Positions 5,425-56,891 of a stretch of 64,000 nt of DNA are shown here, one piece after another. The DNA lies in assembly GCA_964502145.1 (NCBI GenBank), contig CAZCVI010000002.1, positions 117,383 to 181,382 on the forward strand, read 5' to 3'. The position numbers and the translations under genes were made by a program. The first letter of the stretch is position 1; each line of letters starts with the position of its first letter. This DNA comes from an uncultured Clostridia bacterium (lineage in GTDB: Bacteria; Acidobacteriota; Aminicenantia; UBA2199). The notes beneath the pieces are model-generated. The model did no database searches, was not told the DNA's origin, and saw only the letters and a list, made by a program, of their open reading frames with translations.

Positions 5425-5831
5425 TTTAACGCCCTCCGTAACGGCGTGTTTAATTCTTACTGGCACGATGCTATTCAAATAACCATTCAAATAATATGAC
5501 CTATAAGAAATTTTAAACATCAAACAAGCGAAAGTCAACCATTAATAAAAAAAAAGTAGGAAGGAAAAATAGAGAACTGTAACGAGAACAGTTGATAATG
5601 TTTTGCCTCTCATAAAATTGGAGTTTTCAAAAGTTTCCTTAGCATTATAATATAACTTGGAAGAAACCGCTGAGCGAAAAATACCATATTCATCCCACGC
5701 AATTGGTGAGGAGGAAAAAGCAGTTATTCGAAGGTGCGTCCGAAATATTCAATCGTAGTAACACCGGGCGAATCTACTGTGAACACAAGGAGGCTGTCCC
5801 CTCCCATCCTCCTGTAACCGTAAACAGTGAT

Positions 5832-7711: not shown

Positions 7712-8056
7712 ATGGCCAACACACAGAGGATTTTGAAAGTTTATATGGATTCCCGCGGTAAAGAGCCTTTTATTGAGTGGTTGGAATCGATAAAGGACCG
7801 TAAAAACAGAAGTAGGATTATTACTAGATTGGATCGTTTGGAAGTCGGTAATCCCGGTGATTCCCGCCATTTGGGTAATGGGTTGTTTGAACTACGCTTG
7901 GACTTTGGCCCCGGCTTTCGGATTTATTATGGTGAAGATGACGCGGTGATCCTAATTTTGCTGGTGGGTGGCGATAAAGGGACGCAATCCGCAGATATCA
8001 AAAAAGCCCAATCTTATTGGAAGAGGTATCAGGAGGAAAAAAATGAGAAATTTTAG
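7712..8056 (+). CDS. HigB/RelE-like toxin (addiction-module killer protein, TIGR02683-like)
   Basis: MANTQRILKVYMDSRGKEPFIEWLESIKD...FRIYYGEDDAVILILLVGGDKGTQSADIKKA is a typical killer-protein block. It overlaps the next gene by 14 nt. Confidence 0.7.
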   Translation: MANTQRILKVYMDSRGKEPFIEWLESIKDRKNRSRIITRLDRLEVGNPGDSRHLGNGLFELRLDFGPGFRIYYGEDDAVILILLVGGDKGTQSADIKKAQSYWKRYQEEKNEKF

Positions 8057-8369
8057 AGATTATCTAAAAGATAAATTGGTCGATCAAGCAGAAGCAGTTT
8101 CTTATCTAAATGTCGCCCTGGAAGAGTATGAAAAAGATCACGATGCCGATGCTTTTTTGCTGGCACTACGTACAGTTACCGAGGCAAATGGCGGTATCTC
8201 TGAATTGGCAAAAAAAACCAATCTAAACAGGCAACACCTGTATCGGTCATTATCAAACAAAGGAAATCCCAGACTGATTACACTGGAAACAGTTTTGCAT
8301 GGACTGGGACTCCGGTTGTCTATTGTCCCTCTTGGAAACAAAAGTCTGGAGACGGAGCACAGAGTATAA
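8043..8369 (+). CDS. HigA-like antitoxin (addiction-module antidote, XRE-type HTH; TIGR02684-like)
   Basis: MRNFRDYLKDKLVDQAEAVSYLNVALEE...ISELAKKTNLNRQHLYRSLSNKGNPRLITLETVLHGLGLRL. Start chosen at MRNF for coupling with the toxin. Confidence 0.7.
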   Translation: MRNFRDYLKDKLVDQAEAVSYLNVALEEYEKDHDADAFLLALRTVTEANGGISELAKKTNLNRQHLYRSLSNKGNPRLITLETVLHGLGLRLSIVPLGNKSLETEHRV

Positions 8370-8652: not shown

Positions 8653-8997
8653 CTATAATGAGAGTACTTTCTTTATGCCCTGTTCGACTTTTTTAAGATA
8701 TTTGGTACCAATTTTCCCGACGAATTCTGTCAATACCTCTTTATCAATGGTAATCAATTGGGAAACGTTTATGACTGAATCCTTTGTTAACGCGGACTCT
8801 TCTTTCTTTAAAAAAACGTTCCCAGGAGCTTCGGCCAATCTAAGATTGCTGGTTATAACCACCACCACAACTGTATTGATTTTACTCCTGTTAAAGGTAT
8901 CGGCCTGCATGACCAGCACAGGTCGTCTGTACCCGGGACCTGAACCTGAGGGTAAATCCAAATCAGCCCACCAAATGGACCCCCGCTCAATTACCAT
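8653..8997 (-). CDS. mazF: MazF/PemK-family endoribonuclease toxin
   Basis: 114 aa with SIWWADLDLPSGSGPGYRRPVLVMQADTFN...TVVVVVITSNLRLAEAPGNVFL, a classic MazF/PemK pattern. Overlaps the upstream antitoxin gene by 7 nt. Confidence 0.75.
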   Translation of the reverse strand: MVIERGSIWWADLDLPSGSGPGYRRPVLVMQADTFNRSKINTVVVVVITSNLRLAEAPGNVFLKKEESALTKDSVINVSQLITIDKEVLTEFVGKIGTKYLKKVEQGIKKVLSL

Positions 8998-9233
8998 TCT
9001 TCTTTTTGCACTATTTTCAACTGTGCCTGATAAAGCCCTTTATCCATTACCGAGGGATTCGTTTGATCTTCATACAATGCATTTAACTGCTGTGTTACAT
9101 TTTCCTCTTTTTTATCCTTCAGATACTCTTCTATTGCCCTCGCATAAAATTCACTGCGAGTTACCTTTAATTGGTGGGCGATTTTCTCGGCCAATGCAAA
9201 TATATTATCCGGTATGTATACTGCTGTTTTCAT
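8991..9233 (-). CDS. Cognate antitoxin of the MazF-like toxin (MazE/RHH-like, 80 aa)
   Basis: Small ORF immediately upstream of, and overlapping, the MazF-like gene. The sequence itself is only weakly diagnostic. Confidence 0.55.
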   Translation of the reverse strand: MKTAVYIPDNIFALAEKIAHQLKVTRSEFYARAIEEYLKDKKEENVTQQLNALYEDQTNPSVMDKGLYQAQLKIVQKEEW

Positions 9234-9536
9234 GCTTAAAGTATAATCCCAATAGAGGCGAATGTCAAATAAAAAACTTCCCCACGTACCGATGGAAATT
9301 AAGAGGTTAGTTGCGCCAAACTAAGCCCAGGAATTTGGGACATGTCAGTGATTCTCATTATTCTCGTTATTCTTTTTCCTCCCATTCTTCGCATTTTGTC
9401 CTAGGGATTTCCAAACTTTTGGTGGTTGTTCCAGGTGAAACTACAAAACTTGCAGATAAAAGTTGCGTATATTATAGTGCTGATTCTAATGCCTAGTATA
9501 ATATATACTTTTAAAAACGAAATGGAGGTTATAAAT

Positions 9537-11594
9537 ATGGAACTATCTTTTATGATTGCAGGTGGTGTGGGAGTTTTTGTTTTTCTCCTGGTGATTGCAT
9601 CCTTCACTAATATTGGCCCGACCCAGGTGGGGTTAGTGATGAAACGGTTCTCTTTAAAAAAGCTTCCTGGAGATAACCCAATCGCGTTTAATGGGGAAGC
9701 GGGATATCAAGCCAAATTGCTAATGCCAGGGTTGCGTTGGAAGTTTATATTGTTATATCAAGTACGAAAATTCCCCTGGGTGCAAGTACCAGCGGGGGAA
9801 ATCGGCGTGATGATATCCCAGATCGGGGCTGCACTCCCTATCGGTGCCAAATCGGCGTTTTATAAAAACGAGTTCGGGAACTTCTCCGACTTAAAGAATT
9901 TTATCTCCCAAGGCGGCCAAAAAGGTGTGCAACGCCCCGTGCTACCTCCGGGAACATTAATTCCTTTTCATCCGGTGGCGTTCCTGGTAATTACCGCTAA
10001 ACAGGTGTATGGCGTACCAGTAGACCCAGAACTGGTCAGATTGGAAGCCAGAACGGGGCGCTTAATGCCCCAATCTTTTGGTCTTGAACCAGACCAATTA
10101 AAACTGGTGATGATCCAACCGGCACCGCATGGCGAAGGCAGTGAATTGATTGATATGGTGGGTATTGTCACTACCTTGGAAGGAGACCCATTGCCTTCTG
10201 GTGCCATTGCCAGCCGCTTGAATGATTTTTACGATATCCAGGAACTGGAAGACGCAGGCAAAGATGATTCCGCCTTAATCGAAGTCCTGCTGGGTAGTAA
10301 AAATGGCTTGCATAACAATTACCAGGATTATCAGGCTTTCTTGGAAAACGGCGGACGCATCGGATTGCAACATGACCCGTTGTTGTATGGTGCATACGCA
10401 TTGAATCCGTTCCTGGTTCGGGTGGAACGTATGCCCATGCTGGTGGTGAAACAGGGTGAAGTGGCTGTTATTAAAGGGTATGTGGGCTTGCCCACCAAGG
10501 ATACTTCGGGTGATAAGTTCAAGTATGGGTCCCTGGTACGACCTGGCCACCGCGGCATCTGGCAAGAACCGTTACGAACAGGTAAATTCGCTATCAATCC
10601 TCGCTGTTACCAACCCGTGATTGTATCCACGGCTATCCTAACATTGAATTGGGCAGAAGCAGTTTCGCGGGCCCATAACTTGGACCGGCAATTATGTCAA
10701 ATTGAAGCTAAAAGTAATGAAGGATTTGTCTTTAGAATTGATCTGCAAGTGCAGATACATGTGGCCGATACCCATACACCACGGGTGATTTCCATGGTAG
10801 GAACAATGGAAAATCTGGTCAACGAAGTATTGCAAGCAGCAGTAGGAAACCACTTCCGCGATAAATTACAAAGTATGCCCGCGGTTGATTTTATTAAGAA
10901 GAGACAGGAAGTTCAAGAACAAGCGCTTATCCATGTCCGGGATCATCTGGCTTTATATCAGGTGGAAACCCGTGGGGTTTATATTCAAGATGTGGTGTTA
11001 CCCAAAGAGTTGGTCAAGGTGTTAACAGAGCGAGAAATCGCCAATCAGAACATCGAAACCTTCAAAAAAGAAAAAGAAGCAGAAGATCAACGCATCGCCA
11101 AACAGCAGGCCATGGGTACGGCAGACATGCAGTTGGCATTAGCCAAGTCGCAGGTGGAAGTGGAAATCAACACCAACCGGGCCAAAGCCCGCAAAGCAGA
11201 AGCGGATGGTGAAGCCACATACATCGAGAAAACGGGTGCGGCGCATGGTGCCAAAATACGTGCGGTAGGGTTGGCTCGTGCCGAAGGTTACGAGGCACAG
11301 GTCAAAGCGTTGGGGCAAATTCCCACGGCATTAGTTAATGCGATTAATGCTCTGTCTGAAGGCAATATGAAGATCATACCCGATGTTTTAGTCACTGGCG
11401 GTTCAGGTTCTCTGGAAGGTTTGGCTGCGACCCTAATAAAAAAATTCACCCCTAAAGCAGAATATCCCGTGGAAGAGAAGCAAAAAAGCGAAGAAATAAT
11501 GGCCAGAACAGCCGATAGGGCTGAAGATAAAGCCATGGAAGATATCGCTTGGTCAGTAAGACCAGAATTCCCAGAGGAAGTACCCACCGTATAA
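9537..11594 (+). CDS. Flotillin / SPFH (band 7) domain membrane protein with a long Ala/Lys/Glu coiled coil
   Basis: Start MELSFMIAGGVGVFVFLLVIASF (transmembrane segment) with GGAGG seven nt upstream. The upstream ATG at 9426 lacks a ribosome-binding site. SPFH core and a flotillin-type coiled-coil tail are present. Confidence 0.7.
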   Translation: MELSFMIAGGVGVFVFLLVIASFTNIGPTQVGLVMKRFSLKKLPGDNPIAFNGEAGYQAKLLMPGLRWKFILLYQVRKFPWVQVPAGEIGVMISQIGAALPIGAKSAFYKNEFGNFSDLKNFISQGGQKGVQRPVLPPGTLIPFHPVAFLVITAKQVYGVPVDPELVRLEARTGRLMPQSFGLEPDQLKLVMIQPAPHGEGSELIDMVGIVTTLEGDPLPSGAIASRLNDFYDIQELEDAGKDDSALIEVLLGSKNGLHNNYQDYQAFLENGGRIGLQHDPLLYGAYALNPFLVRVERMPMLVVKQGEVAVIKGYVGLPTKDTSGDKFKYGSLVRPGHRGIWQEPLRTGKFAINPRCYQPVIVSTAILTLNWAEAVSRAHNLDRQLCQIEAKSNEGFVFRIDLQVQIHVADTHTPRVISMVGTMENLVNEVLQAAVGNHFRDKLQSMPAVDFIKKRQEVQEQALIHVRDHLALYQVETRGVYIQDVVLPKELVKVLTEREIANQNIETFKKEKEAEDQRIAKQQAMGTADMQLALAKSQVEVEINTNRAKARKAEADGEATYIEKTGAAHGAKIRAVGLARAEGYEAQVKALGQIPTALVNAINALSEGNMKIIPDVLVTGGSGSLEGLAATLIKKFTPKAEYPVEEKQKSEEIMARTADRAEDKAMEDIAWSVRPEFPEEVPTV

Positions 11595-11924: not shown

Positions 11925-11953
11925 TTGACTGTTTTTTTTTGCTATGCTACTAT
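11925..11953 (+). promoter_or_regulatory. Candidate sigma70-type promoter (TTGACT, 17-nt spacer, TACTAT) upstream of the RiPP operon
   Basis: Hexamers and spacing read directly. It lies ~125 nt upstream of the radical SAM gene. Confidence 0.3.
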
Positions 11954-12078
11954 TATTTTTAACCTCTTAAACAAAAACCTAGGTAAAATAAATTGGGTGA
12001 AATAATGCAAGTTAAAAAAAGAGTTGTCAGGCAATGGGAAAACTTTTTCCAGACGACAATTTTCTCGGGTATGTGTAA

Positions 12079-13923
12079 ATGATCGAAGCCAACGAAGTCA
12101 AAAAGCACCTCCTTTCCGTTTTAAAAGGTGAGTCGCTCCTGCTGATTGTTCCACCTTTTGTTAATACGCGGACTCCCATCATGGGTCCTCATATCCTGCA
12201 AACCATTGCCCAACAGCAGGGTTATGCAGTAGATATTCTATATGTGAATCTTCTGCTGGCCTCACTCATTGGTACCCAGTTGGTCGAAAGCATCAGCTAC
12301 GGTCAACCTTTTCGTTTATTAGGCGAGCGTTTATTTGCCCGTAGCGCCTATGGATTACCACCATTGGGAAAATTTCCAGAACTCTGTTTGGACGCGGTGA
12401 AATCGGTGTTCGGCGATAAAGAAGAATATCCCATGGAAGCCTTTGAATACAAGTATTATGAGACAACCGATTTCCAAGCCGATACGTACCACCACCTGGA
12501 AAATATCTGCTATGATCTGGTAACAGAGATATCAGAAACCATTGCGGGTATGAATTATCAGATGGTGGGTTGTTCGAGTAACTGGGAACAAAACAATTGC
12601 TCCATCGCCTTGATCAATGCGATCAAAAAACGTCGACCCGACATTATTACCTTGATGGGCGGCTCCAACTGCGAGGGGGAAATGGCAGAAGGAATTGCTT
12701 CACTCAGCCACTCTATTGATTATATCTTTTCCGGGGAGAGCGATCTTACCTTCCCTGACTTCTTAAAAAAACATAAAGCTGGCCAATTACCCTCGAACCG
12801 GATTATCGTGGGCGAACCGGTTACTGACCTGGATAATATCCCGCTCCCCTGTTATGATAGTTATTTCCAACAATCGCGTTGTTTTTTCGGCGCTCAGCCC
12901 AGCGGAGAAAATATCCTGGCCTATGAAACCAGCCGCGGTTGCTGGTGGGGACAATGTACCTTTTGCGGGCAAAATGGCAAACGGAGCCGTTTTCGCCCCA
13001 AAGCTGCCAAGAAAGTCGCTGCTGAATTGGGTGAAATGAATCGCCAGTACCCGGATAAACGCATTCTGCTCATAGATAAAGTGATGCCCATCTCTATCTA
13101 CAACGAACTGCTCCCCTTGTTAGAGCAAAACGGAGTGACAGCACCCATGAGCTGTGAACACCGGCCAGACCTATCCTTTCAAGAACTGCTGGACTTAAAA
13201 AAAGCCAATGTGAATATCATCAAGTTCGGTATTGAAACGCTGTCCAGCGGATTATTAAAACTAATGAATAAAGGCGTGATTGCCGCGCAGAATATTTCTC
13301 TACTTCGCCATGCTGCGGCCTGCGGCGTGCTAATCGATTGGAATATGCTGTGGGGGTTCCCCAATGACAGGTTAGAACACTACCAGGAGATATTGGAACT
13401 GCTGCCTTTACTCCATCATCTCTGTCCCCCTGCGGTATTTCGTCACCTTAGTTTGGATCGCTTTTCTCCTTATTTCGAGAAGCCCCAGAAATATAATATC
13501 CGTAACCTCCGTCCCTGGGCGGTGAACGATATGGTTTACCCGGAGTGGGCAGATATGGAGAAACTAGCTTACCGCTTCATCGGCGATTATCCCAGTGACT
13601 CTCACGACCACCCAGAAATAATCGGCGCCATCTCCCGAGAAGTGGAAAACTGGCAAGCTTCCAGAAAAGATGCCAAGTTGCATCTGAAGGCTGTCGGTTA
13701 TCATTATATTCTCCAAGATACCCGGAAAATAAAAGCGGGCTGCAAACCCCAATTACTGGATGAAGAACAAGCCAGGGCCGTGATGACACCATCCGCCTAC
13801 AAGACTTCAAGCGGACAAGAATGGGCGGTGACTGAAAAACTGGGGGTAGTGGTGGATGGTTTGTACGTTCCCCTGGTGACCGCTTCCCCAGAATTATTAT
13901 TACACTTTATGGAGGAATCATGA
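12079..13923 (+). CDS. B12-binding-domain radical SAM RiPP maturase (rSAM_ocin-like), non-canonical Cx4Cx2C cluster motif
   Basis: N-terminal Rossmann-like B12-binding signature (ITLMGGSNCEGEMAEG). Cys triad SRGCWWGQCTFCG at 12940-12966. Sits beside the YcaO and NHLP precursor genes. Confidence 0.7.
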   Translation: MIEANEVKKHLLSVLKGESLLLIVPPFVNTRTPIMGPHILQTIAQQQGYAVDILYVNLLLASLIGTQLVESISYGQPFRLLGERLFARSAYGLPPLGKFPELCLDAVKSVFGDKEEYPMEAFEYKYYETTDFQADTYHHLENICYDLVTEISETIAGMNYQMVGCSSNWEQNNCSIALINAIKKRRPDIITLMGGSNCEGEMAEGIASLSHSIDYIFSGESDLTFPDFLKKHKAGQLPSNRIIVGEPVTDLDNIPLPCYDSYFQQSRCFFGAQPSGENILAYETSRGCWWGQCTFCGQNGKRSRFRPKAAKKVAAELGEMNRQYPDKRILLIDKVMPISIYNELLPLLEQNGVTAPMSCEHRPDLSFQELLDLKKANVNIIKFGIETLSSGLLKLMNKGVIAAQNISLLRHAAACGVLIDWNMLWGFPNDRLEHYQEILELLPLLHHLCPPAVFRHLSLDRFSPYFEKPQKYNIRNLRPWAVNDMVYPEWADMEKLAYRFIGDYPSDSHDHPEIIGAISREVENWQASRKDAKLHLKAVGYHYILQDTRKIKAGCKPQLLDEEQARAVMTPSAYKTSSGQEWAVTEKLGVVVDGLYVPLVTASPELLLHFMEES

Positions 13924-13950
13924 CTCCTCTAAAGAGCTGAAAAAACTACC

Positions 13951-16215
13951 ATGTTAGAAAATCCTATACTGAAACCCTGTTACGGTGCCGAATGTATCGA
14001 CACCGATCACGTCTTGTTAATATCGGAAAAAGACAATGTCTTATTAACCGGGAAACTTTACAACCTGGTACTGTCTGAAATTTGTGGCAGCACGCTTTCG
14101 TTGGCTGAAGTGGTGGACCGATTGCGTGGAAAACTTTCTGAAATGGAAATCTATTTAGCGCTGGAATCTCTGGAAAAGAAAGGGTACATCACTGAAGCTG
14201 CACCAGCACTACCACCAGAAACCTCTGCTTATTGGAGCAGCCAGGGGATGGAGATCAATCGGTTTCTCACGGTTTTGCAGGAAAAGACCATTACCCTTAC
14301 ATCTGTTGGTTCCCTTGCAACCGAATTATTTAGTCAGGCATTCGCTTTAACTGGCCTTAAATGCAGTGAAACCGGGGCGTTGCATGTTTATATTACCGAT
14401 GATTACCAGCGCCATCAGTTTGCCACCATCAATCAGGACGCTCTAAAAACCGGGCAGCCCTGGATGCTGGTTAAACCGGTGGGTGTGGAACTGTGGGTGG
14501 GGCCGATTTTCCTGCCAGGACAAACGGGTTGTTGGGAATGCTTGAAACAGCGCTTGGATATGAACCGTCCTGTAGATGCGTTTTACAAGACCCAGAAAAA
14601 CACCCGTCATCACCTATCTCTTCCCGCTGCTTTTTCCCCGCTTTCCTGGCAAATTGCCGCCAATATGACCGCGCTGGAGATAACCAAATGGCTTTATGCC
14701 GGGCATAATGAGCGGTTGGACGGCAAACTTATTTCTTTTGATACAGCGACCATGAACACCCAATCCCATGTACTGGTCAAACGCCCCCAATGCTCCTCCT
14801 GCGGCGAACCCGGTTATTTACGCGCAGAATCCCTTCCCATTATTCCGGTGCGACGATCGTCTTGCAGTGTGACCGCATTGGGTGGCTACCGCGAAGTAGA
14901 CCCCGAAGCTACTATTGAAAAATACCAGCATCACGTTAGCCCTATTACCGGAGTGATGCCGAAACTGGAACCGTATTACCATGTCAAAGGCACACCATTA
15001 TATAACTACTCTTCGGGTCGCAATATTGCACTGCGCAGTAAATCGTTATTCTGGTTGAACCAGCATCTCCGTAGCGGCAATGGCGGCAAAGGAAAAAATT
15101 GGACCCAGGCCAAAGTCGGGGCATTGTGCGAGGCGGTGGAACGGTATTGTTTCACCTATCACGGTGACGAACCCCATATCACCACCAGTTTAAAGAATTT
15201 AGATGGCAAGGGCATCCATCCCAATACCTGCATGAATTTTAGTGACACCCAATACCAGAATAGGGTAGAGAGTAACCGGAACTGCGGTAAATTTTATTCC
15301 ATGGTGCCTATTCCCTTTGATTCTGCCCGCGAAATGGATTGGACCGCCGTGTATTCGTTGACCCACCAGATGTTCAAGTATCTGCCCTCCTGTTTTTGTT
15401 ATGCCCAATATCCGGCTGAAGATGAATTAAATCTTTTTTCCTATCCAGACAGTAATGGGTGTGCCGCTGGGAATTCCATTGAAGAAGCCATATTACAGGG
15501 TTTTCTCGAACTCGTTGAACGAGATGCTGTGGCATTATGGTGGTACAATATGCCCCGCCGAACCGCCGTGGACCTCTCTAGTTTTAACGAACCTTATTTT
15601 TTACAATTAATAGACTATTATCAGTCATTACAACGAAGTCTTTATGTATTGGATTTAACCTCTGATTTAAACATTCCCACCTTTGGCGCTGTGTCTCATC
15701 AGCTAGATGGTGGCACACAGGATATTATTTTCGGCTTTGGTTCCCACGTGGACGCCCGGATCGCATTGGAAAGAGCACTGGTAGAATTAAACCAACTTTT
15801 ACCCATCGTTGATGGTCCCGAAGTTGATAGAGCCAAAGGGAAATATTTGACCCAGGATAATAACTTTCTCCATTGGTTAAAAACCGCGACCATGGAAAAT
15901 CAACCCTATTTAGCGCCCCAGCAAGACATCGCTCCCAAAACCGCAACGGATTACCCCCAGTTATGTGAACCCACCATCTATGATAGTCTGATGTTCTGTG
16001 TAAATACAGCAGCTCAACACGGCTTGGAAACATTGGTACTTGATTTGACCCGCCCCGACATCGGGCTTAGCGTCGTCAAGATCGTTGTGCCTGGTTTAAG
16101 GCATTTCTGGCAACGTTTGGCACCTGGACGATTGTATGATGTCCCCGTTCAGATTGGCTGGCTGGCTACCCCCCTCCATGAAGCCCAGTTAAATCCCATG
16201 CCTTTATTTATATAA
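13951..16215 (+). CDS. Fused E1-like (ocin-ThiF-like docking) / YcaO cyclodehydratase, PatD/TruD-type architecture
   Basis: N-terminal half has WMLVKPVGVELWVGPIFLPGQTGCWECLKQRL (cyclodehydratase E1-like). C-terminal half has GNGGKGKNWTQAKVGALCEAVERY and SNGCAAGNSIEEAILQGFLELVERDA, which are YcaO ATP-binding signatures. Confidence 0.8.
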   Translation: MLENPILKPCYGAECIDTDHVLLISEKDNVLLTGKLYNLVLSEICGSTLSLAEVVDRLRGKLSEMEIYLALESLEKKGYITEAAPALPPETSAYWSSQGMEINRFLTVLQEKTITLTSVGSLATELFSQAFALTGLKCSETGALHVYITDDYQRHQFATINQDALKTGQPWMLVKPVGVELWVGPIFLPGQTGCWECLKQRLDMNRPVDAFYKTQKNTRHHLSLPAAFSPLSWQIAANMTALEITKWLYAGHNERLDGKLISFDTATMNTQSHVLVKRPQCSSCGEPGYLRAESLPIIPVRRSSCSVTALGGYREVDPEATIEKYQHHVSPITGVMPKLEPYYHVKGTPLYNYSSGRNIALRSKSLFWLNQHLRSGNGGKGKNWTQAKVGALCEAVERYCFTYHGDEPHITTSLKNLDGKGIHPNTCMNFSDTQYQNRVESNRNCGKFYSMVPIPFDSAREMDWTAVYSLTHQMFKYLPSCFCYAQYPAEDELNLFSYPDSNGCAAGNSIEEAILQGFLELVERDAVALWWYNMPRRTAVDLSSFNEPYFLQLIDYYQSLQRSLYVLDLTSDLNIPTFGAVSHQLDGGTQDIIFGFGSHVDARIALERALVELNQLLPIVDGPEVDRAKGKYLTQDNNFLHWLKTATMENQPYLAPQQDIAPKTATDYPQLCEPTIYDSLMFCVNTAAQHGLETLVLDLTRPDIGLSVVKIVVPGLRHFWQRLAPGRLYDVPVQIGWLATPLHEAQLNPMPLFI

Positions 16216-16322
16216 ATAAGGATCGTAGATCATGTTGTGTACTATTTTCAACGTATTATCCAATAACTTTGGCGTAACACATAAGAAAAATAAAATATAA
16301 ACCAAACAAAGGAGATTTAGCC

Positions 16323-16820
16323 ATGAAAGAGAAAAATTTTACGATTACCGAAAACACGAAACCGCAGGATGTAAAAAAAATCAGGGACATTTATACCAAT
16401 TACCTGAGAGTCATGCTCAAGTGTGCTGAAGACCAAGCTTATTTTGTAGAATTTCAGAAGAACACCCGTGATATCCTGGTCAATGAAGTAGGGATGACCA
16501 TCCCGGAAGGAGTCCCAATTGTTCTTGATGACAATGTAAGATGGGCATCACTGGTCTTAAATGCAAAAGGTGCCGATGGTAGCAATTATGTGGTAAAAGA
16601 AATGGAACTGGGTATCAAAGCCTATGAAACTTGGGCTGATGGAGAACTTGAAGCGTCTATTACCCAACTTACCCATGAAGCCTGCGTTGAAGTTGATATT
16701 AAAGCCGAATTCAAGAATTTTACACCAGCAATTCGTATCCCATTTATTGATGTAACCAAGGATTTACTGGGTGAAATTAGCTTTAATAAGAAGACTGAAA
16801 TCGTTTTAACTTGTTGCTAG
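16323..16820 (+). CDS. NHLP-type (nitrile hydratase alpha-like leader) RiPP precursor peptide, 165 aa, C-terminal ...IVLTCC
   Basis: Leader block TRDILVNEVGMTIPEGVPIVLDDNVRWASLVL matches the NHLP consensus. There is no CSLCSC metal site, so it is not a true nitrile hydratase. GGAG nine nt upstream of the start. Immediately downstream of rSAM and YcaO. Confidence 0.6.
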   Translation: MKEKNFTITENTKPQDVKKIRDIYTNYLRVMLKCAEDQAYFVEFQKNTRDILVNEVGMTIPEGVPIVLDDNVRWASLVLNAKGADGSNYVVKEMELGIKAYETWADGELEASITQLTHEACVEVDIKAEFKNFTPAIRIPFIDVTKDLLGEISFNKKTEIVLTCC

Positions 16821-16833
16821 CCGTTGTTGATTT

Positions 16834-16871
16834 AGTGGGCTTCCCGGTTTTTTTTTATCAGGAAGCCCACT
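16834..16871 (+). terminator. 11-bp perfect stem (agtgggcttcc/ggaagcccact) with a 16-nt T-rich loop after the precursor gene; attenuator or terminator candidate
   Basis: Read directly. There is no downstream U-tract (the T-run lies in the loop). Confidence 0.4.
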
Positions 16872-16970
16872 GCGGACTCTGTAAAAAGAAGACTTTTATT
16901 AAACGTGGCTCTTGTTTGGGCATTGACTGATCTTAATTAATAATTTATACTTTAGTATACTTTTTATATT

Positions 16971-17060: not shown

Positions 17061-20000
17061 ATGAAAATTGCAGATTATTTTGTACTGGAGACGCTGTCAC
17101 ACGGACCAAGAGTTACCGTTTATAAAGCAAAAAAAGAAAACAATACTACCTCTGTTGTCTTAAAGGTCACCGAAAAAAAAACAGCCGAGAAACTTGATAT
17201 TGTTCGCTCCCTGGAACATGAATACCAATACATCAAGCAGGTGGATTCCGACTTTGTGATCAAAGGGATTCACTGGCAAGAGGAAAAAGAGGTTGCTTTT
17301 ATCGTATTGGAAGATATTGATGCTCAATCACTTAAACACTTCATCAAGGAGAAACAGCTCTCTATCCCACAGTTTTTGGACCTCGCCAAAAAGATTGTCG
17401 ATGGACTGGCAGCCATACACAGACAAAACATCATTCATAAAGATATCAATCCATCCAATATCATATGGAATCCAGAAACCGGTGGCCTAAAGATAATCGA
17501 TTTTAATATCGCCTCTAAATTCGATTTAAAATTGTCCTACCTGGGCAACCCGGAAAAACTTAAAGGCACCCTCGCTTATATCTCCCCGGAACAAACCGGT
17601 CGCATGAATCGGCGGGTGGACCAACGAACCGATCTCTATTCCCTGGGTGTCACTTTTTATGAAATGCTGACAGGCAAACTGCCCTTCGACTCAAACCAAC
17701 CCATGGAAATCGTTTATGCCCACTTGGCCAAAGAACCCCAATCCCCGCACCTACTAAATGAAGCTATCCCGGAAATTATTTCCCGGATCATCCACAAATT
17801 AATGGCCAAAAACCCAGAAGATCGCTATCAATCCGCTGAAGGCTTAAAATATGATCTGGAAAAATGTGCTCTATCACACCCGCAAACCTTTGCCCTGGGC
17901 GAAAATGATTACTCTGGCAAACTCCAAATCCCGGAAAAACTTTATGGACGTGAAGAAGAATTAGAACAACTTTTAGCAGTGTACCATCGTGTCAGTCAAG
18001 GCAACAAAGAAATGATCCTGGTGTCCGGATTCTCCGGTTCTGGGAAAACCACTTTGGTGAATGAAATTCATAAATCTATTGCCAAGGACCGGGGCTATTA
18101 TATCAGTGGAAAATTTGATCAGCTTCAACGCACGATTCCCTATTTTGCTTTTATCCAGGCACTTAACCAGTTCTGCCAGTTACTGCTGACTGAAAAACAG
18201 GAAGTGTTGAACCTATGGAAAGTAACTATCTTAAATGCCGTTGGCAAACTGGGGAGAATTCTGACCGATATTATCCCCCAATTGGAAGCTGTGATCGGGA
18301 ACCAACCGGAAGTTCCCGAAGTCAACGGTGACGATGCCAAAAAACGGTTTAATTATGTGTTTTTATGTTTTTTAAATGCCGTGGCCACTGTGGAGCATCC
18401 CCTGGTCATGTTTATCGATGATCTACAGTGGGCCGATCTGGCCTCCTTGAGCTTGCTGCAATTGATCATGGAAGACCGGAAAAGTTGCTATATATTCTTG
18501 ATAGGCGCTTACCGGGATAATGAAGTATCCCTCTCCCATCCCTTGATAACCACTCTGGCGGAATTAAAAAAACAAGCTATCCCCATCCATACTATTCCCG
18601 TTAAAAATCTCTCCCGGCAAAATGTGTCGGCGTTGCTAGTGGATACGTTTAAGACCCCAAGGAACAAAAACCAGGAGGAATTGGACGCATTGACCACTTT
18701 GATCTATCAAAAAACACAGGGTAATGCTTTTTTTACCCTTCAATTTATTGAAAACCTTTTTAAGGAAAACCTATTGTCGTTTGATTTTAAGAAATCCAGG
18801 TGGATATGGGATATCAAAAATATCGAAAAACAGAACATTACCGACAACGTGGTGGCATTACTGGTCAAAAAAATTAAAACATTGCCGGAAAAGACCCAGG
18901 AAGTTTTAAAACTGGCCGCCGCTATTGGCAATACCTTTGAATCGCCAACCTTGTCCGTTATTTCCGGGGCAACGGAAGCAGCCCATCGCCAAGCTTTGGA
19001 ACCCTCGTTGGCGGAACATCTGGTCTATCCCATAGATATAGGTATTTACAAATTTGTTCATGACCGTATTCACCAGGCTATCTACTCCATGGTACCCGAT
19101 GAAGACAAAAAACATTTGCATCTCAAAATCGGCAGATTACTGCTGGAAACATTTGACCTCCAGGATACATCAACACTTTCAAAAGAGACGGATCAGCGAA
19201 TTTTTGATACTGTTAACCATTTGAATATCGGAATTGACCTGATCATTGATGAACGGGAAAGAATTCATTTGGCCACACTGAACCTTAAAGCCGCTAAACA
19301 TGCCCGGGTAGCTGCCGCTTTTTCTATCGGTGTCGTGTATGTACGGACTGCCATACGTTTATTACCAGACAATAGCTGGCAGCAGCATTACGATCTGACT
19401 CTGTCCGTGTACAACGAGGCTGTGCTCGCCTCCTACTTATTCTTAAACCTAGCGGAGATGGAAAAATATGTTGAAATCATATTGTCCTCCACGCAAAATA
19501 TTTTACATCGCTCGGTGGCGTATGAATACCGCCTTTTGAGTTTAATCGGACAGAATAAATCCCAACAGGCCGTTGAAGCAATCTTAACCATTTTTAACCT
19601 TCTGGGAGTGACTATTCCCCCCGAACCCAGTGGTCCAGAAACAATGGCCATATTTGGAGAAGTTCAAACCATGTTAACCAGTATGAATCAGGAGACGATT
19701 GCCAATCTTCCCCTGATGACAGACGAAGCGAAATTGCAAGTGTTACGCCTTTTTTATATGGCTGGCCTTTCCTTTATGCATGGCCGTCCAACGGCATGGC
19801 CCTATGTGATCAGTAAAATGATCCATCTTATACTCACTTATGGCTTGACAGCGGAAACTCCCTATGTGATATCTCTTTATGGTGTGATCAAGGTTGTTAT
19901 GGGTGATTTTCCCAGTGCCTACCAATTGGGAGAAATGGCAGGGGAATTATTGGCCCGGGGTATCGGTAATCAAGCCATCCAGGTCAGAACCATCGGCATT

Positions 20001-22337
20001 ATCTGTTTTTATCTGCGGGGGTATAGAACCCATTTTAAAAAAATAGCCAAGGAGATGATGGATACCTACTCCCTGTGCATGGAAGTGGGTGATTTTGAAT
20101 ATGCGGGATATTCATTGGGCAATTACCTCTGGTGCCTCAATCGTACAGATACCCCGTTGGAAGAGGCATATCAGAAAGCATTGAATTGCCGGGAAACAGT
20201 CCTACAATTAAAACAACCCCTTCCGATACCACCCATATTCATTGAAATTACCATTTGCGAGAATTATCTCGGCAAAGCGGTTGATCCGGCTGTTTTGGCT
20301 ATCAACTATGATGAACTTTTTAAAAACCTACCGATTGGTTCTACTGGAATATTTAGTTGTGGGGCCAATATAAAACAAGCGATATTATTCTTCTTTTTTG
20401 AGCGGTACGATAACGTTTTGGAGTTAATGGTTTCAACTGAAAACCAATATAATGCCTTGAATATGCCGCTTACCTATTTTAGAAGCGATATCCACTTTTA
20501 TTTTACCCTGATCTATATTGAACTTTATACACGCAGTGAATCGGAAAGTGAAAAAGAAATCTGTATTACTAAGATAAACGAGAATAGAACTATTATGAAA
20601 CAGTTGGCTGAATTCGGCCCGGTAAATTTTCTGCATAAGTATTACTTGTTGGAAGCTGAATATGGCAGGGTTACCGGTAACAATAATCAAGCGCCAGAGT
20701 TCTATGACAAAGCCATAGAAACGGCTTATGAAAACGAATATATCAACGAGGCGGCCCTAGCCAACGAACTGGCCGCAAAATATTATATCCGGGAAAACCG
20801 CCGCAAATTCGCCACCTTCTACTTCATGGAAGCACGAAACTGTTATGTCCGGTGGGGCGCACTGGCAAAAGTCAAGCATTTGGATGACAACTATCCCAAA
20901 TACTTGAGTCTTGGACTCCCCGATTCTTCCTTGAGCCGCTCCTCCCTCTCCAGTACTTCAACCGGAACCGCTGGCGATTTCCTGGATGTCAAGAGTATCA
21001 TCAAAGCGTCGCAAACCCTGTCTGGTGAAGTTCAGTTAAAAAGCTTGTTGGAAAAATTAATGCAGATATTGATTGAGAATGCCGGGGCCCAAAAAAGTAT
21101 CTTGATCGAAAATAATGGCGGACGCTTGCTCATTCAAGCAGAAGGTAATACCAATGGTGTATCCGGTATTTTGCATGAGCTGCCAGTGGACGAGTCGGAT
21201 AAAATACCATTGTCCATCATCCATTATGTGGCCCACAGTAAACGGCAATTGGTTTTTGATAACCTATCTACAGACCCCAATTATACGACCGACGAATATA
21301 TCCAAAAAAATCAGCCCAAATCCGTGGTGTGTTTTCCCATCTTAAGTAAGGGGGAAGTTTCTGCCATTGTTTATTTGGAAAACAATCTGGTGGAAGGTGT
21401 ATTTACTCCAGCCCGGTTGGAAGTGCTCAATATGCTTTCGTCGCAAATCGCCATTTCAGTGGAAAATACCCATCTGTATGAGACGCTTGAAGAAAAAGTA
21501 AGGCAGCGTACTATTGCATTGCAAAAAGCACATCAAGAACTGGAGAAGAATCATAAAGAACTGGCGGAAAGTCATAGGAAAATCAATGACAGCGTGAACT
21601 ATGCCAGCAAGATACAAGAGGCGGTTTTACCCGGCGAGGAAATCCTCAACACCCTTCTTCCCCAACACTTTGTCTTCTATCGGCCCTGCTCGGTGGTCAG
21701 CGGTGATTTTTATTGGATCAAACCGGTGGGACAAAAAATAGTGGTGGCTACTGCCGACTGTACTGGCCACGGGATTCCCGGTGCCTTGCTAAGTATGCTG
21801 GGCATGACCTTTCTGAGCGAAATCGTGCCCCACCTGGCCGAACAAAACCAACTGAGCGCGGCCAATGTACTGGACCAATTACGCCAAAAAGTCAAAATCT
21901 CCTTGAAACAAGAAGGAAAGGTTCGTCAACAAAGAGATGGGATGGATATTGCGCTGTGCATCATCGATCCTGCGGATAAGCAATTGCAATATGCCGGTGC
22001 TTATAATCCGTTTTACTTGATCAAGGATAATCATCTTCTGGAAACAAAAGCAGACACCATGCCCATTGGTTTTTCCACCAAAGAACGCCCCTTTACCAAT
22101 CATGATGTCAGGTTTGAAAACGGGAGTATGGTTTACCTTTTCTCCGATGGGTACGCCGATCAAAACGGTGAGGATGGCGAGGTGAATTTTAGCAGGGTGA
22201 AATTTAAGAAATTGTTGACGGAAATCAGCAGGGAACCGGTAGCCAAACAAAAAGAAGTGTTAATCCAACGCTTCGAGCAATGGCGGGGTGACCTGCCACA
22301 ACGTGACGATGTCCTGGTCCTGGGAATAAGACTATAA
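17061..22337 (+). CDS. Giant multidomain signalling protein: N-terminal Ser/Thr-kinase-like domain with degenerate motifs, AAA/NTPase (Walker A GFSGSGKTT), helical/TPR-like region, GAF, coiled coil, C-terminal PP2C/SpoIIE phosphatase
   Basis: Kinase-like motifs are VVLK, HKDINPSN and DFN. Walker A and B (LVMFIDDLQWAD) are present. PP2C motifs are SGDFYW, ADCTGHG, DGMDIAL and SDGYADQ. Confidence 0.8.
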   Translation: MKIADYFVLETLSHGPRVTVYKAKKENNTTSVVLKVTEKKTAEKLDIVRSLEHEYQYIKQVDSDFVIKGIHWQEEKEVAFIVLEDIDAQSLKHFIKEKQLSIPQFLDLAKKIVDGLAAIHRQNIIHKDINPSNIIWNPETGGLKIIDFNIASKFDLKLSYLGNPEKLKGTLAYISPEQTGRMNRRVDQRTDLYSLGVTFYEMLTGKLPFDSNQPMEIVYAHLAKEPQSPHLLNEAIPEIISRIIHKLMAKNPEDRYQSAEGLKYDLEKCALSHPQTFALGENDYSGKLQIPEKLYGREEELEQLLAVYHRVSQGNKEMILVSGFSGSGKTTLVNEIHKSIAKDRGYYISGKFDQLQRTIPYFAFIQALNQFCQLLLTEKQEVLNLWKVTILNAVGKLGRILTDIIPQLEAVIGNQPEVPEVNGDDAKKRFNYVFLCFLNAVATVEHPLVMFIDDLQWADLASLSLLQLIMEDRKSCYIFLIGAYRDNEVSLSHPLITTLAELKKQAIPIHTIPVKNLSRQNVSALLVDTFKTPRNKNQEELDALTTLIYQKTQGNAFFTLQFIENLFKENLLSFDFKKSRWIWDIKNIEKQNITDNVVALLVKKIKTLPEKTQEVLKLAAAIGNTFESPTLSVISGATEAAHRQALEPSLAEHLVYPIDIGIYKFVHDRIHQAIYSMVPDEDKKHLHLKIGRLLLETFDLQDTSTLSKETDQRIFDTVNHLNIGIDLIIDERERIHLATLNLKAAKHARVAAAFSIGVVYVRTAIRLLPDNSWQQHYDLTLSVYNEAVLASYLFLNLAEMEKYVEIILSSTQNILHRSVAYEYRLLSLIGQNKSQQAVEAILTIFNLLGVTIPPEPSGPETMAIFGEVQTMLTSMNQETIANLPLMTDEAKLQVLRLFYMAGLSFMHGRPTAWPYVISKMIHLILTYGLTAETPYVISLYGVIKVVMGDFPSAYQLGEMAGELLARGIGNQAIQVRTIGIICFYLRGYRTHFKKIAKEMMDTYSLCMEVGDFEYAGYSLGNYLWCLNRTDTPLEEAYQKALNCRETVLQLKQPLPIPPIFIEITICENYLGKAVDPAVLAINYDELFKNLPIGSTGIFSCGANIKQAILFFFFERYDNVLELMVSTENQYNALNMPLTYFRSDIHFYFTLIYIELYTRSESESEKEICITKINENRTIMKQLAEFGPVNFLHKYYLLEAEYGRVTGNNNQAPEFYDKAIETAYENEYINEAALANELAAKYYIRENRRKFATFYFMEARNCYVRWGALAKVKHLDDNYPKYLSLGLPDSSLSRSSLSSTSTGTAGDFLDVKSIIKASQTLSGEVQLKSLLEKLMQILIENAGAQKSILIENNGGRLLIQAEGNTNGVSGILHELPVDESDKIPLSIIHYVAHSKRQLVFDNLSTDPNYTTDEYIQKNQPKSVVCFPILSKGEVSAIVYLENNLVEGVFTPARLEVLNMLSSQIAISVENTHLYETLEEKVRQRTIALQKAHQELEKNHKELAESHRKINDSVNYASKIQEAVLPGEEILNTLLPQHFVFYRPCSVVSGDFYWIKPVGQKIVVATADCTGHGIPGALLSMLGMTFLSEIVPHLAEQNQLSAANVLDQLRQKVKISLKQEGKVRQQRDGMDIALCIIDPADKQLQYAGAYNPFYLIKDNHLLETKADTMPIGFSTKERPFTNHDVRFENGSMVYLFSDGYADQNGEDGEVNFSRVKFKKLLTEISREPVAKQKEVLIQRFEQWRGDLPQRDDVLVLGIRL

Positions 22338-22346
22338 AATGGCCAT

Positions 22347-22376
22347 AAAAAGGAGGCACATAGCCTCCTTTTTATG
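22347..22376. terminator. Rho-independent terminator (aaaaaggaggc-acata-gcctccttttt), bidirectional between convergent genes
   Basis: GC stem flanked by an A-tract and a T-tract, read directly. Confidence 0.6.
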
Positions 22377-22381
22377 TTTGA

Positions 22382-22633
22382 TTATTTAATTTTTTTCCTT
22401 TCCGCATTGTTTTTTAATGCATTGGCAATAATCCATTCTTGCTTTTGTTGATTGGCATCTTCAATGGTTCGGTACTTAAAAACTCCGTGAGGAAAATTCG
22501 GAGGACAAAGACGATTGGCTAAATCCCAGAGTTTAACTACCTGTTTATAGTATTCTTCGTCGGGGTCAAAGCACCAGAGGGCTCTTTCAGCCTCTTGAAA
22601 ATCTTTAAACTTTTGAATTGCCATTTGGGTCAT
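22382..22633 (-). CDS. Small hypothetical protein (83 aa) overlapping the 3' end of the upstream nucleotidyltransferase-fold gene
   Basis: ORF with a 29-nt overlap. Possible second component of a two-gene module. Confidence 0.4.
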   Translation of the reverse strand: MTQMAIQKFKDFQEAERALWCFDPDEEYYKQVVKLWDLANRLCPPNFPHGVFKYRTIEDANQQKQEWIIANALKNNAERKKIK

Positions 22634-23099
22634 CCCCCTTTTGTCTCATAAGCTCATATAAAAAGAAGGCATCCCTTTTATCTTCAGATCGAAGAGTATC
22701 TTTTTTTAGTTTGAAAAGAGTCTGCGCTGTGGCCACATTTATTGGAATTTCATCAAAAGTCATAATCTCATATTCCAGATCATCATATGTCGCAAACTCT
22801 CCTAATCTGGCCATAATATCTATATAAAACCCATCTGGAGCGCCATATCGAATTACTGAATACTGATTTAATTCCTCAAAGGTAATATCAAAGATACATT
22901 CATCTTGAAAAACGTCATCTAGTGCTTTTTGAAGCTTCTTGATATTTTCGGAATTCATTTTTACAAATATATCAATATCCTGAGTAAGACGAGGTAAACC
23001 ATGGAGAATAACTGCAAATCCTCCGATTAGGATGTAGTCCACCTTTTCTTTACCTAGAGCTTTAAGTACTTTCAAAAATTTCTCGAATAATTCTGTCAT
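22605..23099 (-). CDS. Nucleotidyltransferase-fold protein (minimal NTase-like, GG...DID motif)
   Basis: VDYILIGGFAVILHGLPRLTQDIDIFV fits the hG[GS]x(9-13)DhD pattern of pol-beta-type nucleotidyltransferases. Confidence 0.5.
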   Translation of the reverse strand: MTELFEKFLKVLKALGKEKVDYILIGGFAVILHGLPRLTQDIDIFVKMNSENIKKLQKALDDVFQDECIFDITFEELNQYSVIRYGAPDGFYIDIMARLGEFATYDDLEYEIMTFDEIPINVATAQTLFKLKKDTLRSEDKRDAFFLYELMRQKGDDPNGNSKV

Positions 23100-27813: not shown

Positions 27814-29202
27814 TTGATAAATAATTTTAATGAAGGATATGACATGCCTGAAACAAATAATGAACCAAGATTCACGTGCGATTGGATTTTTAATATACTG
27901 GTGGTCTTAAGCGACGGGAAAGTGGTGTGCGGGTGCGCGGACCCTTATGGTCAGAGACCTCTGGGCCATTTACAGGAAAAGGGAATCTACGAGATTTGGA
28001 ATTCTGAGCCAGTGAAACAAATCCGCCGGGATTTGAACGCGGGACATGCCGATTTCTGCGGTCCCTGCGGTTTGAAACGGTTCCTCAAAGAAAACGAAAC
28101 GCTACCACAAGCACCGGAACACCTGGACGTATTACCCCGACTATTTTTGGAACCGACGGTGTTATGCAACCTGAACTGCTTCAAAGCGGTGTGCAGCAAA
28201 GAAGCGGATATCTTAAAATCGCGCACACGGACTATTTTTCCGGTTGAAGAATTTAAAAGTCTTTTAGATCAAGTGTGGGAGAAACTGATCCGCTTGGATT
28301 TTTTTAACTACGGCGACCCTTTTGTTCATCCACAAGCGGCGGAAATGATGGCTTATATTAAAGAAAAATACAGGCATATCTATCTGTATGTGAGTACGAA
28401 CGGATTGATGCTGGATGAAGAGAAAATAAAAATTCTGGCGGCTTCGGGGGTGGATGAGATTACATTTTCGGTGGATGGGGTAGATCAGGAATCGTATGGT
28501 CACTACCGACAGGGCGGGGATTTTAATAAAGTGCTGGGGCTGATGGCCAAAATGGTAGCGGAGCGAAATAAAATAGGTCGCGAAGTGCCTTTTATTAACT
28601 GGCGTTATATTCTGTTTAATTGGAACGATTCCGTTGCGCAGATGAAACGGGCGAAAAAACTGGCGGCCAAAATCGGCGTCGATCGTTTTACCTGGGAAAT
28701 CACGGATCACCCAGTAGAAGGGAAATCGGAAAAATACCAGATCGGCACGGAGGCATGGAAAAAGATATATTATGAAATCTGGGATACGAGCCAAATTGGC
28801 AACGTGGTGAAAAAGAATCGTTTCATGGCAAAAATAAAGGTCTTGTCTGGACGGGTGGATATGGCGGTTGGGGGTGACGCTGTGAATGTCCGGGTGCAAG
28901 TGAAAAACAAGGGGGGCGCACTGTGGCGGAAAGTAACGTGGTCGGGTCGTAGACTGGTTCGCCTGGGCGCACAATGGTATGACAGGGATAAAAAACTGCT
29001 GGACCTGAATTATGCACGGGTGTTTTTAAATAAAGACTTGGGTTATCGGAAAAAAGATATCTTAACGATCACGTTACCGCCATTATCGCAACCTGGGGAG
29101 TATTTTCTGAAGTTTGATATGGTTTCGGAGGGCAATGATTGGTTTGAAAACGGGGGCTCGCCAGTGGTGTGGGTGCCGTTTAGGGTTTATGCGGGGGGGT
29201 AA
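27814..29202 (+). CDS. Cys-rich Fe-S / radical-SAM-like protein (non-canonical CNLNCFKAVC plus N-terminal CGC...CGPCG cluster)
   Basis: TIM-barrel-like pattern (LYVSTNGLML, DEITFSVDG) after the Cys motifs. Assignment is tentative. Confidence 0.45.
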   Translation: MINNFNEGYDMPETNNEPRFTCDWIFNILVVLSDGKVVCGCADPYGQRPLGHLQEKGIYEIWNSEPVKQIRRDLNAGHADFCGPCGLKRFLKENETLPQAPEHLDVLPRLFLEPTVLCNLNCFKAVCSKEADILKSRTRTIFPVEEFKSLLDQVWEKLIRLDFFNYGDPFVHPQAAEMMAYIKEKYRHIYLYVSTNGLMLDEEKIKILAASGVDEITFSVDGVDQESYGHYRQGGDFNKVLGLMAKMVAERNKIGREVPFINWRYILFNWNDSVAQMKRAKKLAAKIGVDRFTWEITDHPVEGKSEKYQIGTEAWKKIYYEIWDTSQIGNVVKKNRFMAKIKVLSGRVDMAVGGDAVNVRVQVKNKGGALWRKVTWSGRRLVRLGAQWYDRDKKLLDLNYARVFLNKDLGYRKKDILTITLPPLSQPGEYFLKFDMVSEGNDWFENGGSPVVWVPFRVYAGG

Positions 29203-56889: not shown

Positions 56890-56891
56890 CA

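Follow-up and report, generated by a model that had tools for sequence, protein, structure and literature searches.

Kinase-associated TOMM systems and the present locus

In 2010 Haft, Basu and Mitchell described a set of Burkholderiales precursors, designated 'NHLP-Burk' (TIGR03795; NHLP, nitrile-hydratase-like leader peptide), which adjoin fused cyclodehydratases; one member of each precursor pair ends in Cys-Cys or Cys, and the precursors are further characterized by an insert before a P-x-x-P motif and by a suffix of about 11 residues (PMC2887384). The same clusters include a large Ser/Thr kinase, and the family TIGR03903 carries the name 'TOMM system kinase/cyclase fusion protein' (TOMM, thiazole/oxazole-modified microcin; PMC2887384). 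A survey of 2015 mentions NHLP-Burk and assigns no function to it (PMC4603692). Kinase-associated TOMM clusters were thus flagged by genome context in 2010, and the literature that we searched contained no experimental characterisation of them, no functional study of the clusters or of the role of the kinase, and, for a link between YcaO proteins and GAF/STAND kinases, only the figure legend of 2010. Here we analyze a related locus in a 64,000-nucleotide stretch of DNA from an uncultured bacterium (contig CAZCVI010000002.1, positions 117,383 to 181,382; hereafter the window), which encodes a radical S-adenosylmethionine (SAM) enzyme, a YcaO cyclodehydratase, a precursor that we call PRE, and a giant kinase. 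These four co-directional genes probably constitute a kinase-associated TOMM-type, that is azoline-forming, module for the modification of a peptide or protein, although this prediction, drawn from sequence and gene context, is held with moderate confidence.

Among known systems, the NHLP-Burk kinase-associated TOMM cluster comes nearest to the locus, and not the polytheonamide-type cluster. As in NHLP-Burk, the precursor ends in Cys-Cys (...TEIVLTCC), has a suffix of about 11 residues and an insertion N-terminal to a proline motif, and lacks Gly-Gly; it is likewise accompanied by a fused E1/YcaO cyclodehydratase and by a Ser/Thr kinase of large size that has a STAND NTPase domain, and in Bacteroidota genes of the PRE family stand beside TIGR03903 kinases. 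The two systems differ in that the insertion comprises about 55 residues in PRE and about 15 in NHLP-Burk, and in that PRE lies under the cut-offs of both TIGR03795 and TIGR03793. The kinase of the window matches TIGR03903 with only 136.3 bits, against a cut-off of 705.75, over residues 293-699 only, and contains GAF and PP2C domains and no cyclase domain. Furthermore, the module adds one to three genes for B12-radical SAM enzymes, only one precursor gene, in place of a tandem pair, is found in the window, and the host lineages are different.

An earlier note on this DNA, made from the sequence alone, had called the locus proteusin-like. Azol(in)e-containing NHLP and proteusin systems (MprE/MprC/MprD, nostatin A) would resemble it in the recognition of a structured NHLP leader by a YcaO protein, which for MprE and MprC involves contacts between the proteins, an L-x4-L motif among them (PMC12455567). 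The label is nevertheless a loose one: there is no epimerase-type radical SAM enzyme and no Gly-Gly site, and the core has only some 11 residues. Unlike those systems, the module is also devoid of a flavin mononucleotide (FMN) oxidase and a C39/ABC exporter, its core is conserved, the leader of PRE has a large insertion, and there is a conserved kinase partner. In proteusins the C-methylation of aliphatic side chains by B12-dependent radical SAM enzymes (PoyB/PoyC, polytheonamide) is established. A further point of comparison is provided by the cyanobactin enzymes LynD, PatD, TruD and MusD, to which the YcaO protein is homologous over its full length, and with which it shares its three-domain architecture and conserved nucleotide-binding motifs. 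In contrast to cyanobactin clusters, however, neither the window open reading frames (ORFs) scanned nor the related loci encode PatA/PatG proteases, a macrocyclase or an oxidase, and PRE is a 165-residue protein with a predicted fold and two or three modifiable C-terminal residues, rather than a multi-cassette PatE-type peptide.

Gene order and conservation of the module

The first three genes, which had been noted earlier as co-directional, lie on the + strand and are separated by gaps of 27 and 107 nt: the radical SAM gene (12079..13923, +; 614 residues, a TIGR03975 family member by profile match), the gene for the fused cyclodehydratase (13951..16215, +; 754 residues) and that for PRE (16323..16820, +; 165 residues), whose ATG is preceded at 8 nt by an AGGAG sequence. 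The fourth gene begins 240 nt past the precursor gene (17061..22337, +) and encodes a protein of 1758 residues with a Ser/Thr kinase domain (residues 9-263), an AAA_16 STAND-type NTPase domain (293-475), a GAF domain (1326-1466) and a SpoIIE/PP2C phosphatase domain (1558-1757). The motifs HKD, DFN, Walker A and DCTGHG can be recognised in this protein, and no transmembrane segment was found in it.

The order radical SAM (one to three genes), YcaO, PRE (one to three genes), kinase is present in all of ten independent loci, namely the window and nine others, seven of which were found through the closest homologues of the radical SAM enzyme (L005-L007, L087-L089 and L093; about 50-61% identity) and two through the kinase (L090 and L091). 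The hosts are metagenome-assembled genomes (MAGs) labelled Kapabacteria, Acidobacteria or unclassified bacteria, with flanking genes that are unrelated from one locus to the next. Across the loci the giant kinase has a constant Pkinase-AAA_16-(TPR)-GAF portion, and its output region is either PP2C or HisKA/HATPase/REC/AraC-HTH. A metagenome scan with the radical SAM alignment returned a single locus.

The linkage holds in the reverse direction as well. Among the kinase matches listed, a top group of 51, mostly 44-58% identical to the kinase of the window, is followed by 68 paralogues that are mostly 35-41% identical; 24 of the 51, and none of the next 68 listed, lie on contigs equal in length to those of the closest radical SAM homologues, such agreement being an indirect proxy of co-location that is uninformative on adjacency for four of the matches, whose contigs exceed 1 Mb. 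The top-group kinases of L090 and L091, whose contigs agree in length with none of those of the listed radical SAM homologues, still stand in the order radical SAM, YcaO, PRE, kinase, whereas a Beggiatoa paralogue (36% identity) has no YcaO and no module-type neighbours nearby. The kinase is therefore a conserved fourth member of the module, and the compact three-gene cluster of the earlier description has to be extended accordingly. No protease, exporter or dehydrogenase is conserved across the ten loci, and the window ORFs scanned include no FMN dehydrogenase, C39/ABC exporter or epimerase; the absence of dehydrogenase, protease and exporter genes that had been remarked upon thus extends to the nine related loci.

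Individual loci show additional features. In L089 a gene for a papain-family peptidase (PF00112, 8136-8936) lies directly 5' of the radical SAM gene and a second radical SAM gene follows the YcaO gene, and in L006 an RND efflux system is encoded nearby on the other strand. The SPFH/flotillin gene upstream of the module in the window (9426-11594) was considered as a further member and rejected, as no contigs other than those of the same organism contain it. We also considered an anti-phage defence function for the kinase; the PADLOC matches (PD-T4-6, MAD6) span only the generic kinase domain, and the YcaO protein and the precursor have none.

The hairpin that had been noticed directly after the precursor gene (16834..16871, +; 14 nt past the stop codon) is a strongly predicted element, with a stem of 11 outer base pairs and 3 inner pairs and a folding energy of -29.4 kcal/mol (z = -4.06; as stable in none of 200 shuffles), and a strong stem-loop likewise occurs 3' of the last precursor gene in five relatives (L087-L091). 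It is no canonical intrinsic terminator, because its T-run is within the loop, and the terminator scan made no call there. The scan did detect a bidirectional terminator-like hairpin of 14 bp (22344..22376) that closes the kinase gene. Two promoter-like sites were recognised by consensus match only. The first, TTGACT-17 nt-TACTAT with a TG element, lies 5' of the radical SAM gene (11925..11953, +), its first position coinciding with the start given in the earlier note, and is not significant alone, since the region has 23 such sites against 21 expected from shuffles; the second, TTGACT-17 nt-TATACT, lies 5' of the kinase gene (16923..16951, +) and, with 10 of 12 positions matched, is the best of the region.

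The fused YcaO cyclodehydratase

[quoted passage not shown] The winged-helix domain (PF21084) spans residues 7-82 with 39.4 bits against a gathering score of 24.1, and aligns from residue 9 of LynD onward; TIGR03882 matches residues 169-335 with 158.7 bits (cut-off 36.9), TIGR03604 residues 379-752 with 271.6 bits (cut-off 219.25), and PF02624 scores 307 bits. The alignment with LynD, a cyanobactin heterocyclase, covers residues 7-752 and scores 641 bits, and the solved structures of MusD and TruD also align over the full length. These matches bear out the fused E1-like/YcaO architecture of the PatD/TruD/LynD type that had been proposed for this gene.

Acidic motifs of the CEAxER and ELVERD types bind ATP and Mg in YcaO structures. 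Both CEAxER and EEAILQGFxELVERD are kept in the alignment with LynD, where the corresponding segments CEAVERY and EEAILQGFLELVERD are the same or almost the same, and they are invariant among relatives. Thioamidation, the other reaction considered for this protein, was rated less likely, there being no TfuA and the enzyme being a full-length LynD homologue.

PRE, a new family within the NHLP clan

PRE had been thought to match the NHLP leader family, and this did not hold at the level of the profile: it scores 18.7 bits with TIGR03793 (cut-off 50.9), has no match to TIGR03795 at E <= 0.1 and contains no Pfam match. A word-indexed homology search with the 165-residue protein returned only PRE itself, so that an exhaustive HMMER search was required; among 1.84 billion representatives this recovered a family of 44 representative clusters, most of them homologous over nearly the full length, with proteins of 77-249 and mostly about 160 residues. 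TIGR03793 is matched by 23 of 29 members of the family, none of them at the cut-off, and TIGR03795 by two of the 29 (E 0.022).

The alignment of the family begins with an NHLP-leader-like region (...NP..L...VGM.IP..V.I.LD). Glu93 and Pro140, the latter inside a PFFD motif, are invariant, and the extreme C-terminus is conserved as E-[IV]-[IV]-[LM]-[ST]-x-C (e.g. EIILSCC, EIILTCA and EVILSSC), and the last Cys reaches a conservation of at least 90% in alignment A3. In PRE itself, which ends in ...KTEIVLTCC, this family-conserved tail forms the putative core N155-C165 (NKKTEIVLTCC; 16785..16817, +). PRE was also compared with the short NHLP-type ORFs that adjoin related YcaO genes, such as one that reads ...IPLPPKPTDFSEEQLSAW...MMPNCC. 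The pattern indicates that PRE is composed of an NHLP-clan leader, a predicted β-structured insertion of about 55 residues before the proline motif, and a core of about 11 residues. Given the failure of TIGR03793, the existence of a full-length family and the similarity at the level of the clan, PRE is, as judged by these comparisons, a new family inside the NHLP clan, a remote member of it and no canonical NHLP.

A second departure from the earlier description concerns the division into a leader and a core, which here is not of the hypervariable kind. The whole of the 165 residues is conserved, including the tail, no Gly-Gly cleavage motif precedes the tail, and the AlphaFold model is folded throughout (predicted local distance difference test, pLDDT, 92.6; predicted template modelling score, pTM, 0.83). 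The only plausible sites of heterocyclisation in the core are T163, C164 and C165.

PRE is the sole member of its family in the window and, in agreement with the earlier proposal, the best candidate for the substrate. The related loci contain one to three tandem paralogues, and tandem paralogues are a frequent arrangement of RiPP precursor genes. Two of these loci have unusual precursors: in L006 the second of two tandem paralogues (L006:14810-15445) has no Cys tail and ends in ...NSSQGK, which might mark it as a degenerate copy or as a partner that is not a substrate, and in L089 a 102-residue precursor with an NHase_alpha match and the end ...GPGACT (L089:15183-15491) replaces the type of about 160 residues. 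An alternative view would make PRE an accessory or scaffold protein, the enzymes acting elsewhere, for instance on the kinase or on an unlinked peptide. The protein-like character of the modelled fold, the L006 paralogue without a Cys tail and a 25-residue ORF overlapping the start of the radical SAM gene (12005-12082) might be cited for it, but the conserved [ST]-x-C tail is precisely what azoline-forming YcaO enzymes use, and the predicted NHLP-like fold and the tandem paralogues also speak for a precursor. The 25-residue ORF is conserved in no relative, nor is any other candidate substrate, and we consider the scaffold role very improbable. This small ORF (MQVKKRVVRQWENFFQTTIFSGMCK; 12005-12082, +), whose stop codon overlaps the radical SAM start codon (ATGA), was examined separately as an alternative precursor and rejected: it has no counterpart 5' of the radical SAM gene in eight relatives and is probably a chance ORF.

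The radical SAM enzyme

With 437.1 bits against a cut-off of 281.85, over profile positions 2-549 of 606, the first protein belongs to TIGR03975 ('RiPP maturation radical SAM C-methyltransferase', rSAM_ocin_1), and PF04055 matches residues 282-442 with 39.4 bits. The search recovered 1753 homologues, the closest about 61% identical. The three Cys residues of the cluster-binding motif C288-x4-C293-x2-C296 (RGCWWGQCTFC; 12940..12966, +) are at least 95% conserved among 118 homologues, and the motif aligns with RGCDYSRCTFC of the B12-radical SAM enzyme OxsB, the sole solved relative (24 bits). The cobalamin-binding-like N-terminus that had been noticed in this protein is less clear than its family membership, as the B12-binding domain PF02310 is matched at residues 149-228 with only 20.5 bits, under the gathering score of 32.1; some close homologues do bear a precomputed PF02310 match.

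On the strength of the TIGR03975 family annotation, the enzyme is predicted to be a C-methyltransferase. It might instead act on the tail by a different radical reaction that depends on B12, for example a rearrangement, a cross-link or a ring contraction. In favour of this, OxsB has the same CX4CX2C motif and does not methylate, and no characterised member of the subfamily was found in the literature searched; however, the score is well over the cut-off of a family that NCBIfam names C-methyltransferase, and the further matches, all far under their cut-offs, are mostly to class B methylases (HpnR, PhpK and the methyl-coenzyme M reductase (MCR) glutamine methyltransferase). We regard a non-methylating reaction as unlikely.

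The wider YcaO group

A genome scan with the YcaO alignment yielded at least 79 loci at 42-49% identity, more distant than the lineage of the window, which come from filamentous cyanobacteria, Aquimarina, Tenacibaculum and Parabeggiatoa and were scanned with hidden Markov models and phmmer on six-frame ORFs. Among the 79 loci listed, a homologous giant kinase (>=300 bits) is present in 40, in 31 of these downstream on the same strand, and a kinase at >=50 bits in 45; flanks of 8 kb or more are available on either side in 43 of the listed loci, and 29 of these have a kinase. An NHLP-clan ORF occurs in 58 of the 79, many of these ORFs ending in CC, TC or SC, and the short Ser/Thr/Cys tails include ...CRSCC, ...MPNCC, ...WIPYTC and ...IPLSTS. 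Kinases that are true TIGR03903 members (888-974 bits, cut-off 706) are encoded 5' of the YcaO gene in Aquimarina, Tenacibaculum and a Bacteroidales MAG, and in the Aquimarina and Tenacibaculum loci genes of the PRE family are situated between kinase and YcaO genes.

An Amidohydro_2 gene directly follows the YcaO gene in 40 of the 79 loci listed. The arrangement YcaO, Amidohydro_2 (PF04909), giant Pkinase-AAA_16-GAF kinase is a recurrent module of filamentous cyanobacteria and Parabeggiatoa (L026, L038, L043-L045, L048-L049, L057-L058, L061-L062, L065-L068, L073-L076 and L078-L083, with the YcaO gene mostly near position 10000), for which no published description was found. It resembles the module of the window in having a YcaO of the same clade (42-46% identity), a homologous Pkinase-AAA_16-GAF kinase (about 1000 bits) and precursors of 100-300 residues with short Ser/Thr/Cys tails (...IPLSTS, ...WIPYTC, ...CC), and differs from it by the Amidohydro_2 gene, the lack of a radical SAM gene, and precursor families ('YIP' and short NHLP) other than PRE. 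The ORFs of 150-300 residues beside these modules share the motif PYPPRP, and their ending is ...IP[LVT][ST][STC][CST]; those scanned gave no Pfam or NCBIfam matches.

Predicted reaction sequence and fate of the product

Taken together, these observations suggest the following sequence of events. PRE would fold as a nitrile-hydratase-like leader domain and expose its short conserved tail, ...EIVLTCC. The LynD-like YcaO protein might then dock on it through its N-terminal RRE-like winged-helix domain, probably reading the hydrophobic pair L149-x4-F154 just before the tail, which by analogy we infer to correspond to the L-x4-L of MprE. ATP-dependent cyclodehydration of Cys164 and/or Cys165, and perhaps of Thr163, would give thiazoline (or methyloxazoline), and the TIGR03975 B12-radical SAM enzyme would add at least one C-methyl group to an unactivated carbon of the tail. 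As no oxidase is present, the rings would be expected to remain azolines, and as no protease or exporter is conserved, release and export would either depend on unlinked genes or not take place. The STAND-type Ser/Thr kinase/GAF/PP2C protein might be a dedicated regulatory partner, whose task would be either to control the pathway or to read the product.

Several observations weigh against this interpretation of the module as a whole. PRE fails TIGR03793 and shows no TIGR03795 match (see above). The AlphaFold model places E159-T163 in a β-strand of the fold, so that access may be limited to the last two or three residues, which would be odd for a YcaO substrate. The only solved relative of the radical SAM enzyme, OxsB, is a non-methyltransferase, and the PF02310 match is below threshold. 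The hairpin and a promoter-like site separate PRE from the kinase gene, which may have its own transcript and could encode nothing more than a regulator. In the wider YcaO group, the loci, at least 79 in number, are phylogenetically clustered, with many Nostocales among them, and a related radical SAM gene occurs in only one of the 79 listed; from the distant relatives that have Amidohydro_2 and no radical SAM gene it follows that the chemistry is not uniform across that group.

The fate of the product can be viewed in two ways. One, in line with the earlier note, is a conventional secreted RiPP: an unlinked protease would remove the last 8-11 residues, these would leave the cell as a small thiazoline peptide bearing methyl groups and might serve as an antibiotic, a metallophore or a pheromone, and the kinase would do no more than regulate the pathway. 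A Thr-thiazoline-thiazoline-carboxylate at the C-terminus would be similar to thiazoline natural products known to bind metals, and the hairpin 3' of the precursor gene is reminiscent of attenuators in RiPP operons. Moreover, LynD-type enzymes and NHLP precursors normally yield released peptides (PMC12455567, PMC2887384). On the other hand, the ten loci have no cleavage motif, protease or transporter in common, and the conserved core is atypical, as NHLP-type antibiotics have hypervariable cores (PMC4603692). A secreted peptide is possible, although we think it rather doubtful.

Alternatively, the uncleaved, modified PRE might itself be the end product and serve as an intracellular ligand or partner of the STAND kinase-phosphatase, in signalling rather than as an antibiotic; this is unlikely, and we advance it tentatively. 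The complete predicted fold of PRE and its conservation from end to end, the conserved rather than hypervariable core, and the lack of any protease, Gly-Gly site or exporter conserved in the ten loci are all consistent with a protein that stays in the cell. For the kinase, the lack of a transmembrane segment, the constant Pkinase-AAA_16-GAF portion with a variable output domain, a pattern typical of sensors, and the way in which its subfamily tracks the module point in the same direction. If so, a RiPP-type pathway might conceivably be placing a heterocyclic, methylated C-terminal 'tag' on a folded protein instead of making an exported product, a notion that is more speculative than probable. 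The tagged PRE, or its metal-, redox-, ATP- or B12-dependent modification state, would then be the specific input of the cytoplasmic kinase-phosphatase, which is again a suggestion with the odds against it. Against a signalling role, regulators often cluster with biosynthetic genes without sensing their product; a papain-like peptidase is encoded upstream in L089 and an RND efflux system close by in L006, and housekeeping proteases could free a short peptide.

Were the tag to be a signal, the kinase-associated TOMM clusters, widespread in Bacteroidota, cyanobacteria, Burkholderiales and others, would be signal-transduction devices. The window contains a minimal version of the module, with one radical SAM enzyme, one YcaO protein, one precursor and one kinase, and is suited to heterologous expression. 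Since the conserved tail of three or four residues ends a confidently predicted fold, the site of modification should be easily located by mass spectrometry. Such work, if successful, would show the joint action of a LynD-type heterocyclase and a TIGR03975 B12-radical SAM enzyme at a protein C-terminus, would test azoline chemistry on proteins rather than peptides, and would account for the co-inheritance of giant STAND Ser/Thr kinases with these enzymes in several phyla.

Other genes in the window

Elsewhere in the window, a giant nonribosomal peptide synthetase is encoded by an ORF of 6272 residues (38071-56889), followed by one of more than 2376 residues (56871-63998) that runs off the window end. 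The first 3000 residues contain a Radical_SAM domain (1713-1876) and a B12-binding domain (2056-2166) between condensation and adenylation domains; such an in-line B12-radical SAM unit is unusual. A radical SAM/SPASM protein unrelated to the module (27814-29202, +) has its best NCBIfam matches, under the cut-offs, with tungsten-cofactor and metalloenzyme maturases. In the ORF as listed, its SPASM match precedes the radical SAM core, which suggests that the called start is situated too far upstream. A GlmS-like protein (GATase and SIS domains; 23205-25769, -) has 854 residues, typical GlmS proteins being some 200 residues shorter, and no intein domain was reported in it.

Two toxin-antitoxin-like pairs are encoded upstream of the module, one of Gp49/HigB-like and HI1420-like genes (7712-8369, +) and one of a PemK/MazF-like toxin with an 80-residue partner (8653-9233, -), and an AbiEii-like nucleotidyltransferase is found downstream of it (22605-23099). 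Genes that hint at a Bacteroidota host code for a PcRGLX-like/BACON-domain protein (1453-5538, -) and a peptidase of family S46 (32686-34866, -).

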